From Laetmonice hystrix (taxonomy: Eukaryota), in assembly GCA_965235115.1 (NCBI GenBank), contig OZ249436.1, forward strand, positions 2,916,001 through 2,980,000: 64,000 bases of DNA, written 5' to 3'. Under the pieces are notes generated by a model. It was given only the letters and a program-made list of their open reading frames with translations. It ran no database searches and was not told the origin of the DNA. The translations under genes and the position numbers were made by a program. Positions 46,462 through 52,400 of the stretch are shown in pieces; the stretch's first letter is position 1, and each line of letters opens with the position of its first letter.

Positions 46462-49400
46462 CTGTAACATAGATTTATACGTCTGAGAATGGGGGGAATG
46501 GCAATGGTACTTCTTAGTAATTCTTCCTAATTGATCAAACCTAAAAGAAACAAAACTGCCATGTTTCAGTGTCAAGTACATCAGGTTTTCCTAATACATT
46601 ACATGTTGTGTTTCACATCATGTTTCAGGTACACATGTACAACTTTCCAACATTGAATGGTCTGCGATGGCCCTTTACCTCCGGAACATGGACATGTATG
46701 TGTCCATTCAGCAGGAAGTTATTGTCTGCGATGGCCCCTTACCTCCGGAACATGGACATGTATGTGTCCATTCAGCAGGAAGTTATTGTCTGTGATGGCC
46801 CCTTACCTCCGGAACATGGACATGTATGTGTCCATTCAGCAGGAAGTTATTGTCTGCGATGGCCCCTTACCTCCGGAACATGGACAAGTATGTGTCCATT
46901 CAGCAGGAAGTTATTCTCTGTGATGGCCCCTTACCTCCGGAACATGGACATGTATGTGTCCATTCAGCAGGAAGTTATTGTCTGCGATGGCCCCTTACCT
47001 CCGGAACATGGACATGTATGTGTCCATTCAGCAGGAAGTTGTTCTCTGGTTGTTGTTCCATCAGGAAAGACTTGGCGTAGGTGTGCGCGATGTGAGCGCT
47101 TTCTTTCATTACATCACCAAGGTGACCTGTCAGTTCCATCGATCCCTGCACGTCCTTTGTCTCGGTGGCTAAAGGTCGTTTCAAGGTCGACTCAATAAAC
47201 AGGGTTGATCCTCCTGTAACAACAAAGAAAACAGATGTCACCTTCTTTTTTCACGATTTAATTGCATTCATGACTCTAGCAGCATCAGCTCGAGATGAAT
47301 TTGATAAATACAGATTGCCAGAACAATACTGCATGGTCTACTTTTATCACCCCACAGGATACCCCACAGACATCAGGTCATCCAGCTGTGACTGACACCT
47401 GTCACTCACCCATCGAAGTCCACGCCAGACCCATGACAACCCCTGGTGGTGTGTCGTCATACAAACGGTCCGAGGTGAAGACAGGCTTTCCGACAAAATC
47501 TGGCAAGTTTTCAGGAGACGCTACCAAATTTTCTGCCTCTTTACTCACTATCTTGAAAGCCGCTTTCCTCAGCACCTGTGGAGAGATTCCATTCATACGT
47601 TACTTCCTTTCCACTACAATCATTTCACACTACAAGATACAATGAGGTCCAATTTCTTGTTTTTAAATCATCGCAAAGGTTGTTTTTCGCTTCACCAGTA
47701 AGACCACTGGCTGCAATCTTACATATTTCAATGTTGCGTTACACTGTCAGAGCATACCTTTTCAATTTGTTTTTGAAGGTTTCGAACTCCGCTCTCTCTG
47801 CAGTATGATTTGATAAGAACATTGAGAGCTTCCTCTGTGATAGTGACATGTTCTGGTGTGATACCACTGGACTTCTGGGCCTGTGGAATCAGGTACCGCT
47901 AAAAAAACATACAACATACTGTCATCATCAAGTCAATGTAATACCACTCGCCTTCTGGGCCTGTGGAATCAGGTACCGCTAAAAAACATACAACATACTG
48001 TCATCATCAAGTCAATGTAATACCACTCGCCTTCTGGGCCTGTGGAATCAGGTACCGCTAAAAAAACATACAACATACTGTCATCATCAAGTCAATGTAA
48101 TACCACTCGACTTCTGGCCCTGTGGAATCAGGTACCGCTAAAAAAACATATGACATACTGTCATCATCAAGTCAATGTAATACCACTCGACTTCTGGCCC
48201 TGTGGAATCAGGTACCGCTAAAAAAAACATACAACATACTGTCATCATCAAGTCAATGTAATACCACTGAACTTCTGGGCCTGTGGAATCAGGTACCGCT
48301 AAAAAAACATACAACATACTGTCATCATCAAGTCAATGTAATACCACTCGACTTGTGGGCCTGTGGAATCAGGTACCGCTAAAAAAACATACAACATACA
48401 TTGTACTGTCATCATCAAGTCAATGTAATACCACTCGACTTGTGGGCCTGTGGAATCAGGTACCGCTAAAAAAACATACAACATACTGTCATCATCAAGT
48501 CAATGTAATATCACTGGACTTCTGGGCCTGTGGAATCAGGTACCGCTAAAAAAACATACAACATACTGTCATCATCAAGTCTATGTAATATCACTGGACT
48601 TCTGGGCCTGTGGAATCAGGTACCGCTAAAAAAACATACAACATACACTGTACTGTCATCATCAAGTCAATGTCATTCCACTCGACTTCTGGGCCTGTGG
48701 AATCAGGTACCGCAAAAAACATACAACATACTGTCATCATCAAGTCAATGTAATACCACTCGACTTCTGGGCCTGTGGAATCAGGTACCGCAAAAAACAT
48801 ACAACATACTGTCATCATCAAGTCAATGTAATACCACTCGACTTCTGGCCCTGTGGAATCAGGTACCGCTAAAAAAACATACAACATACTGTCATCATCA
48901 AGTCTATGTAATACCACTCGACTTCTGGGCCTGTGGAATCAGATACCGCTAAAAAAAACATACAACATACTGTCATCATCAAGTCAATGTAATACCACTC
49001 GACTTCTGGGCCTGTGGAATCAGGTACCTCTAAAAAACATACAACATACTGTCATCATCAAGTCAATGTAATATCACTCGCCTTCTGGGCCTGTGGAATC
49101 AGGTACCGCTAAAAAAAACATACAACATACACTGTACTGTCATCATCAAGTCAATGTAATACCACTCGACTTCTGGGCCTGTGGAATCAGGTACCTCTAA
49201 AAAACATACAACATACTGTCATCATCAAGTCAATGTAATACCACTCGACTTCTGGGCCTGTGGAATCAGGTACCGCTAAAAAACATACAACATACTGTCA
49301 TCATCAAGTCAATGTAATATCACTCGACCTTTGGGCCTGTGGAATCAGGTACCGCTAAAAAAACATACAACATACTGTCATCATCAAGTCTATGTAATAC

Positions 49401-52400
49401 CACTGGACTTCTGGGCCTGTGGAATCAGATACCGCTAAAAAAAACATACAACATACTGTCATCATCAAGTCAATGTAATACCACTCGACTTCTGGCCCTG
49501 TGGAATCAGGTACCGCTAAAAAAACATACAACATACTGTCATCATCAAGTCAATGTAATACCACTCGACTTCTGGGCCTGTGGAATCAGGTACCTCTAAA
49601 AAACATACAACATACTGTCATCATCAAGTCAATGTAATACCACTCGACTTCTGGGCCTGTGGAATCAGATACCGCTAAAAAAAACATATGACATACTGTC
49701 ATCATCAAGTCAATGTAATACCACTCGACTTCTGGGCCTGTGGAATCAGGTACCGCTAAAAAAACATACAACATACACTGTACTGTCATCATCAAGTCAA
49801 TGTCATTCCACTCGACTTCTGGGCCTGTGGAATCAGGTACCGCAAAAAACATACAACATACTGTCATCATCAAGTCAATGTAATACCACTCGACTTCTGG
49901 GCCTGTGGAATCAGGTACCGCTAAAAAAACATACAACATACTGTCATCATCAAGTCAATGTAATACCACTCGACTTGTGGGCCTGTGGAATCAGGTACCG
50001 CTAAAAAAAACATACAACATACTGTCATCATCAAGTCTATACTCTTTGTGAGATGGTCACAATATTACGAGCAATATCATGCAGATATCATCTTTACAGG
50101 GTTCCAGCATTTTGTGAAAATCAAAATCCCGCAGTTTCCCCTGACTGGAAAAACGGAACCTCATTTTCAAGGTTTTCCCTGATTTCCAGGGTGGCTGGGA
50201 ACCCTGTCTCTAGGAAAATAAACAATTCTCTACCTGTGCTATAGCAACTTTTTCTTCAGCTACGTATCCCGAGACGTCAATCATCTCCATGCGATCACGT
50301 AGAGCTTCGGGAATGGTATCGATGATGTTGGCCGTACAGATAAAGAGAACCTTGGAGAGGTCGACAGCCACATCAAGGTAGTGATCAAGGAAGTTAGCGT
50401 TCTGCTCCGGGTCGAGCAGCTCCAGGAGGGCGGAGGCTGGGTCACCCTGATAACCACGACCCATCTTATCAACCTGCAACAACACACAGACAATGTTCAA
50501 TATACAACACAGACTGGGTCACCCTGACAACCACAACCCATCTTATCAACCTGTAACAACACACGGCAAGTGTTCAATACACAACACAGGCTGGGTCACC
50601 CTAATAACCACGACCCATCTTATCAACCTGTAACAACACACAGCAAGTGTTCAACACACAACACAGACTGGGTCACCCTGATAACCACGACCCATCTTAT
50701 CAACCTGCAACAACACACAGACAATGTTCAATATACAACACAGACTGGGTCACCCTGACAACCACGACCCATCTTATCAACCTGTAACAACACACAGCAA
50801 GTGTTCAACACACAACACAGACTGGGTCACCCTGATAACCACGACCCATCTTATCAACCTGTAACAACACACAGCAAGTGTTCAACACACAACACAGGCT
50901 GGGTCACCCTAATAACCACGACCCATCTTATCAACCTGTAACAACACACAGCAAGTGTTCAACACACAACACAGGCTGGGTCACCCTGACAACCACGACC
51001 CATCTTATCAACCTGCAACAACACACAGACAATGCTCAATATACAACACAGACTGGGTCACCCTGACAACCACGACCCATCTTATCAACCTGTAACAACA
51101 CACGGCAAGTGTTCAACACACAACACAGACTGGGTCACCCTGATAACCATGACCCATCTTATCAACCTGCAGCAACACACAGCAAGTGTTCAACACACAG
51201 AGTGTATAACAAACACTCGGCTTATCGCACTCTAACCTCCGGCACTGCTGCAACTATAGAAAGGGAAACATACCTCGTCGATAAGGATGAGTGGGTTCTC
51301 AGTTTTAGTTTTCTTCAGACATTGGATCACTTTCCCTGGCATGGCCCCAACATATGTACGTCTGGAAAACAGATCTCCAATTAGTCACAGGACCACCACC
51401 ACTACAGTCATCAAAATATTCATTTTGAAAAACTTAAAACTTCAAAACTACATAATCTAAGTTAGAATATTCTTCTATCAAATTAACTACTGGGGTAACC
51501 TACACAATTGGACACTTATTTTAACCATGAATTTTTCAAGTATGCCATGAACGGCACACAGTGTACACCAATAGTCACCCTGAAAGATTTACATCTAAAT
51601 ATAACGAAGAATTACTGTCAACATCTGAATACACTGTGAGTACTACAGCCACTATAACCTAACAGGCGATATGATTTTGGATGGTCAACTTCAAAGGTCA
51701 ACCTAAGGTGCCCGTGTACCAAGTCCTTCTGAACTCACCTGTGTCCTTTTATTTCTGCCACGTCTGTCATCCCTCCGACACTGAACCGGAAATACTGAAG
51801 GAATAAAACACAGTTTGAATGGCAGACAGACCCCATAGATCAGAGTGAACCTACAGGTGCCTTGTTTTAAAGGATTTCCTACAGAGGTTACCAATCTCAG
51901 TACTGGTTCTTATATATTGACAAGGTATCTGTTGTCATTCTGAACATATACTTAATATTTTATAACACAGAGTTATGATGGATATCCCACAATTACCCGG
52001 TACCCCATAGTAACCTACCTCTCTGTTAAGAGCCCTTGCTATAGAACGAGCAATGCTTGTCTTGCCAACTCCTGGTGGACCATAGAAACACAGAATCTTG
52101 CCCTGGGTGGAACCTTTCAATTGGCTGACAGCGATGAATTCCTGATGAATAAACAAACATGTGACATTGATTGATCAATTACCAAACAGCTGGACATAGA
52201 GACCAATTAGTAATGCATAATTTACTTCATCTATAAGGCTTTGTGTTTTTTTTTCTGTTCCCTCCAGCTTAAAATCTTTTTTTTTTAAACCCAGGAGGTT
52301 GAAAGAAATTGTTATCTGTAAAATGGACAGCACATCACCACGGCATACCCTGTGGTGGTGTTATATACTGTGGTGCCACCTGGTGCTACCCAGGTTAACT

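Follow-up and report, generated by a model that had tools for sequence, protein, structure and literature searches.

The window, i.e., the whole 64,000-nucleotide stretch of DNA that was analysed, carries on its reverse strand a gene for the mitochondrial Lon protease, LONP1 (Table 1). All 19 introns of the gene model, followed from 59481 down to 46297, have GT..AG ends, and the internal exons measure 56-257 nt. The predicted protein was 74% identical to the top match among the 121 proteins compared; exon 16 by itself matched mitochondrial Lon structures with an E value of about 1e-42 and named LONP1 proteins with identities of up to 94%. Exon 17 begins at residue 805 and gives a Pfam Lon_lid match, and a Lon_C match spans exons 18-20, with exon 18 slightly under the curated cut-off. 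The model is short of about 48 C-terminal residues. A six-frame search of the window with an HMM built from 94 homolog tails did not find the terminal exon, the best hit (8.4 bits) lying on the wrong strand. A reverse transcriptase was the only one of the window's 116 open frames to score above its Pfam cut-off.

A quick tree of 27 proteins, which drew on 26 of the 120 homologs, did not place the Lon of the window within the Branchiostoma clade (support 100); it grouped with that of the annelid Lamellibrachia (support 91, under the star level of the tool). Judging from this weak placement, the host is probably an annelid or another spiralian.

Table 1. Features of the LONP1 locus, in window coordinates; a slash marks the exon-intron border at donors
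Feature	Position	Strand	Details
Mitochondrial Lon protease gene (LONP1), host gene	46297..59481	(-)	20 exons modelled, 1033 codons without a stop
Exon 16	50234..50473	(-)	240 nt, AAA+ domain, donor CAG/GTAGAG
Intron 16	47899..50233	(-)	GT..AG, 2335 nt
Exon 17	47758..47898	(-)	141 nt, phase 0, Lon lid domain, donor AAG/GTATGC
80-bp minisatellite in intron 16, 27 units (78-88 bp)	47857..50037	(-)	TRF and unit enumeration
Authentic intron 16 acceptor AG, last unit	47899..47900	(-)	gene model; used in X4 contig
First decoy acceptor AG	50001..50002	(-)	use would make a 233-nt intron
AG-less unit 3	49836..49850	(-)	acceptor position 49842; 2-nt deletion
AG-less unit 16	48784..48798	(-)	acceptor position 48790
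AG-less unit 17	48706..48720	(-)	acceptor position 48712
87-bp-unit array across exon 4 acceptor	56915..57754	(-)	9 decoys and the real site
41-bp-unit array across exon 12 acceptor	52694..52939	(-)	5 decoys and the real site
77-bp-unit array across exon 16 acceptor	50437..51199	(-)	9 decoys and the real site; skipped in X4 contig
64-bp-unit array across exon 19 donor	46660..47048	(-)	real site and 5 decoys

Anatomy and turnover of the intron 16 array

An earlier note on this DNA had described about 27 tandem copies of the exon 17 acceptor filling most of intron 16, and both statements held. TRF reported a period of 80, 27.0 copies, 92% matches and a score of 3699, far above chance; 27 units could be enumerated on the one haplotype available, and together they take up 91.6% of the intron. 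Each unit joins about 38 nt from the end of intron 16 to the opening 42 nt of exon 17. The full exon 17 follows on from unit 27, which is the authentic boundary; the other 26 units are decoys. A TAG end is found in 23 decoys and in the real unit, whose acceptor is at 47898 (24 of 27 units in all); the other three units end in TTG. It is therefore correct that most copies keep the AG and a few have lost it, the AG-less motifs starting at 49836, 48784 and 48706 (the note had 48707 for the last).

The array is a mirage, that is, a minisatellite at an intron/exon boundary, found here outside Branchiostoma. It is a head-to-tail tandem repeat of minisatellite size (80 bp x 27.0), its unit straddles the boundary with the authentic one in the end unit, and the splice signal is kept in many, not all, copies (an AG in 23 of the 26 decoys). 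Moreover, the authentic site is the one used in the regular mRNA (one of one spliced contig, from a run termed X4, in which rare forms would be invisible).

Reading on from any of the decoys leads to a stop codon after 14-16 codons (26/26). The single peptide that had been ascribed to all upstream copies was found exactly in 8 of the 26 only; the other 18 carry substitutions, and in three the stop comes two codons earlier. Use of a decoy would end Lon at about residue 820, within the lid and ahead of the protease domain, in agreement with the truncation proposed in the note, given the order of the Lon_lid and Lon_C matches described above. As for bases that could tell the real exon from its copies, exon position 30 (a C), the first such base named in the note, is shared with 4 of the 26 decoys and does not qualify, but position 39 is specific to the real exon; only this position, and everything beyond position 42, is unique to it.

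The 27 units comprise 24 distinct sequences, and their variants are scattered along the array without any trend over distance (Spearman -0.08, P = 0.17). Seven of the 13 variants in the exon part are non-synonymous vs 75% expected (P = 0.09), so that no coding constraint is seen in the decoys; neither was there any sign of selection purging the decoy AGs, 23 out of 26 being kept. The loss of the AG in three units apparently goes back to one shared 2-nt deletion. Over the 42 exonic nucleotides, decoys differ from each other by 2.2 substitutions and from the real unit by 2.8, with position 39 separating the latter from all 26 decoys. As far as can be judged from the sequences, this variant pattern is what minisatellite turnover gives.

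The origin of the array was probably simple. A single tandem duplication of 80 bp would have straddled the exon 17 acceptor by chance, and the copies would then have multiplied by ordinary minisatellite turnover, presumably through slippage and unequal exchange. Because the unit ends within the exon, the last copy remains joined to the intact exon and the others become intron, as the anatomy itself shows.

Contig evidence for the junction in use

This DNA is contained in four sequencing runs (X1-X4), all from one sample and one study, which may be the very source of the assembly. None is recorded as RNA. X1-X3 are DNA-like; the library type of X4 is unrecorded, and this run was taken as RNA solely because its contig is spliced. 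Contigs could be aligned to 536 bases (49945-50480) of the 2.7-kb stretch from exon 16 to exon 17, with copies 2-26 and the real acceptor being seen only through likeness and through loose contig ends.

Contig 25 of X4 (1127 nt, depth 27.5) leads from exon 15 through exon 16 into a joint whose ends are CT..AC, with 42 nt beyond it. These 42 nt show three mismatches to copy 1, and exactly three positions (24, 30 and 39) separate copy 1 from the real exon 17 over the same 42 nt. The loose end of the contig is identical to positions 43-72 of the real exon 17, and the opposite loose end corresponds to the end of exon 15. The contig bypasses 26 copies in intron 16 as well as nine in intron 15. Since the exon 16-17 joint is missing from all three DNA-like runs (0/3), it does not stem from a retrocopy in DNA. 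The main transcript, then, uses the last, real copy of the acceptor, as witnessed by a single contig of a single run; rare forms are lost from contigs, and NMD has already acted on steady-state RNA. With the same proviso that contigs hide rare forms, none of the eight X4 pieces covered the intron part of the unit (85% likeness, all pieces listed).

The DNA-like runs also bear on whether misassembly could have produced the array or the greater part of it. No aligned contig spans the stretch, the DNA contigs that cross the array edge reach only 27 letters into it, and the missing terminal exon indicates that the local assembly may be imperfect. There are coverage gaps at 50035-50088 in X3 and at 50017-50124 in X4, although holes between contigs prove nothing by themselves. 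On the other hand, 24 of the 27 units are distinct, with shared recurring variants, and hundreds of DNA contigs fall on the stretch. In 3/3 DNA-like runs the summed depth over the unit was about 10-40 times that over exon 16; summed depth is not copy number, but a value this high implies that the array is present in the raw DNA data. Misassembly is scarcely credible as an explanation.

Acceptor choice among near-identical sites

To compare the sites, we used splice PWMs built from this gene's own sites. Of the 23 AG-bearing decoys, 19 scored 4.4-4.9 as acceptors, against 4.8 for the real site, and the remaining four scored 2.0-2.4; the view of the copies as potential acceptors was thereby upheld. 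The real unit and decoy 2 have identical branch-point-like motifs at -35 to -24. As decoy and real acceptors score alike, the choice between them must be positional or contextual. An even choice across all five arrays of the gene was computed to leave just 1 in 86,400 transcripts intact.

The earlier note had further argued that a simple first-AG model would fail here. This is right for a rule that takes the first AG after the donor. AG scanning, however, is normally understood as starting from the branch point, and since each unit has branch-point candidates of its own, the scanning model in that form is not broken.

Our preferred reading, to which we give a probability of about 0.78, is that the array is a tolerated mirage minisatellite whose last copy is spliced and which has no selected role. 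The spliceosome would pick the last copy most likely by exon definition. Only the real acceptor lies 141 nt from the exon 17 donor with the rest of the exon behind it; the decoys lie 221 nt (copy 26), 300 nt (copy 25) and up to 2243 nt (first copy) from that donor and are followed by intron tail. The remainder of exon 17 is also richer in purines than the sequence after decoy 2 (0.58 vs 0.45) and in GAA (4 vs 0 per 100 nt), a weak hint at enhancers. Any rare decoy products would bear stops and would presumably be cleared by NMD.

In human data, exon-defined splice sites are preferred when they lie close to their partner at the other end of the exon (PMC9225289), and exon definition in our gene would fit this exon-centric rule. 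The same source has intron definition taking over under about 250 nt, a range in which the intron-proximal site is favoured. After collapsing the arrays, 13 of the 19 introns of LONP1 are shorter than 250 nt, and for the five arrays splicing to the nearest decoy would make introns of 248, 155, 107, 233 and 217 nt. On the human data this short-intron range favours the opposite choice; nevertheless, in both introns that could be observed (15 and 16) the farthest acceptor was used. This cuts slightly against the benign reading, since NMD could be hiding products of the first decoy.

A less benign possibility is that the array is an unselected but leaky burden: decoys would be noticeably used, especially the first one and copies 25-26 near the exon, their products would be cleared by NMD, and Lon output would drop with copy number. 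Such leakage would be favoured by the decoy scores and the short nearest-decoy introns just mentioned, and by the stops in all decoys; furthermore, copy 26 combined with the real donor would yield a 221-nt exon, inside the size range of the gene. However, X4 contained no decoy-bearing contig, the AGs have not been purged even though heavy loss would cost this gene, and RT-PCR of amphioxus mirages showed no interference (PMC3087553). We regard an appreciable burden as unlikely, though by no means negligible.

The units also contain a donor-like site, ACA/GTATGT, located 59 nt past the acceptor. The note had assigned it to every unit; it is present in 22 of the 26 decoys, the other four having a 7-nt insert at this place. 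The site belongs to the intron tail proper, 21 nt ahead of the following AG; it also precedes the real acceptor, and it adjoins the branch-point-like motifs. A recursive splice site was considered and rejected, as the junction would read CAG/CGGTAC, with no donor regenerated.

Poison (NMD) exons are exons whose inclusion adds an early stop, as inclusion of any of the 26 decoys would do. The units might accordingly be regarded as regulated poison mini-exons, each a 59-nt exon running from the AG to ACA/GTATGT, with in-frame stops, included on cue to tune the Lon level. The PWM score of the donor-like site (3.9) exceeds those of 5/20 real donors in a leave-one-out comparison, only 19 of 278 GT sites in the short introns of the gene score as high, and 59 nt falls inside the gene's exon size range. 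Against this, the site forms a U1 duplex (-2.9 kcal/mol) less stable than those of 19 of the 20 real donors, it has an ordinary place in the intron tail, and X4 yielded no contig of this kind. In fact, the mini-exon idea of the earlier note received no direct support: the real acceptor is the one joined in the sole spliced contig, and X4 has no decoy-specific contig sequence. Finally, four other junctions of the gene have been amplified alike with unrelated units, which fits a genome-wide mutational process. A low-level leak through the donor-like site may occur, but regulated mini-exons appear very improbable.

These other arrays bring the total in LONP1 to five, four at acceptors (exons 4, 12, 16 and 17) and one at a donor (exon 19); the units of the four are unrelated to that of intron 16. 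The window as a whole is rich in unrelated minisatellites (103 TRF rows). Against a null of random seeds within the collapsed introns of this one gene, five of six arrays were junction-spanning vs 1.9-2.3 expected (P = 0.009-0.03). When the 28-bp array of intron 20, which spans no junction, was counted as well, P was 0.014-0.056, and dropping the intron 16 array, which had been flagged beforehand, left four junction-spanning arrays out of five (P = 0.02-0.06). The excess is only a hint, the gene having been picked for this very trait. One could go further and suppose that the arrays are copy-number-tunable splicing rheostats, sending Lon pre-mRNA to NMD according to array length, and that splice boundaries, being mutational hot spots, seed repeats more often than expected by chance. 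If so, five arrays in one housekeeping gene would make the dose vary between alleles and even between cells. We consider this combined proposal rather improbable.

The locus is of value as a natural experiment: 24 near-identical acceptors stand in a row, of which the farthest serves the main transcript, although a short intron would result from using the nearest. Intron 16 of LONP1 is a ready test of exon vs intron definition in a short-intron invertebrate, copy-diagnostic bases included. It is also a warning for annotation, inasmuch as short read overhangs or gene predictors can put junctions on the wrong copy.

Comparison with known repeats at splice boundaries

Mirage minisatellites were described in amphioxus, where they leave splicing undisturbed; examples are Adh3, troponin C, the globins BflGb6 and BflGb9, and PGBD5 (PMC3087553, PMC3902484). 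The likeness to LONP1 extends to the tandem arrangement of an intron 3' end with the 5' part of the exon, as in BflGb6, to a splice signal kept in most copies with a normally spliced mRNA, to the occurrence of acceptor and donor types within one gene, and perhaps to an end unit partly excluded from homogenisation. The differences are that the host here is not Branchiostoma and that the array has 27 units, vs 3-6 in BflGb6. Our literature search, which most subscription papers lay beyond, found no report of annelid mirages or of a genome-wide mirage survey, an outcome that leaves their absence unproven.

Among human genes, the 844ins68 variant of CBS is a two-copy acceptor duplication of which the distal copy is used (PMC2630376, PMC1802585). 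It resembles our array in the duplicated 3' splice site, in the distal use, and in the upstream exon fragment being spliced out together with its variants. It differs in having two copies instead of 27, and in that G runs separating the sites were held responsible for the choice, whereas G runs are absent from the intron 16 unit. Decoy variants could also be converted into the real exon, as has been proposed for CBS (PMC2630376); the seven amino-acid-changing variants within the copies are candidates for such conversion into exon 17. In the 37-bp VNTR of F7 intron 7, the end unit spans the exon boundary and identical pseudo-sites are silent though functional (PMC1557585). The boundary-spanning end unit and the silent pseudo-sites are common to both systems; the F7 repeat is on the donor side, so it mirrors the 64-bp exon 19 array instead.

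With poison exons the intron 16 units share the early stop, but they differ in that no inclusion was seen, the donor is weak, and the one genome and sample covered gave no sign of conservation or regulation. The type of repeat is already known from amphioxus and humans, and the LONP1 array is a clean further example of it, not a demonstrated regulatory switch.

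Decoys at exons 16 and 4 of LONP1

The intron 15 decoys, upstream copies of the exon-16 acceptor, read AG/GTTGAT, and therefore their use would restore a weak GT donor (computed score 4.3, on a matrix built from LONP1's own splice sites). Recursive rescue is possible at these decoys, in contrast to intron 16. At the exon-4 acceptor, all nine decoys differ from the real exon (56958) at one base, a change of Val to Ile; on sequence comparison, this is another LONP1 site with a fixed difference separating the array from its authentic end unit.

Features in LONP1 and in the rest of the window
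Feature	Positions	Strand	Location
45-bp × 14 array; consensus, exon-like stretch then G/GTAGGT	9406-10044
487-codon open frame; Pfam RVT_1 reverse transcriptase domain, E 5e-36	11395-12855	minus
Minisatellite, 30 bp × 107	25415-28650
Minisatellite, 68 bp × 37	31160-33683
Dispersed element, second copy (74%)	34815-34884
Minisatellite, 14 bp × 187	41109-43658
Short dispersed element	~50105-50210		LONP1 intron 16
Exon-16 acceptor array	50437-51199	minus	LONP1 intron 15
32-bp × 42 array	53937-55269	minus	LONP1 intron 9
Exon-4 decoys	57045-57726

Dispersed element and the region downstream of LONP1

The short element in intron 16 is probably a small non-autonomous element. It occurs as numerous variants in DNA contigs, and its summed depth there, which is not a copy number, is hundreds of times the depth over exon 16.

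A GT donor closes exon 20. In the next 46 kb downstream, on the minus strand from 46296 toward 1, neither tblastn nor a tail HMM matched the terminal exon, which should encode about 48 residues. An assembly gap, a very long intron and a split exon are the alternatives for its absence.

Positions 1-46000 carry unrelated minisatellites at very high density, of which the table lists three examples. Among the 116 open frames there, Pfam recognised no protein-coding exons apart from the reverse transcriptase, which likely belongs to a retrotransposon. The 45-bp array, judging from its consensus, may be a donor-type mirage (a minisatellite whose unit spans an intron/exon boundary) of an unannotated plus-strand gene.

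The intron 9 array

The unit of the 32-bp array is not exon-derived, and AG/GTGTGA occurs at 41 places within it. Joining exon 9 to an AG of the array would regenerate a donor (computed score 6.0), and in its motifs the array looks like a stack of recursive splice sites.
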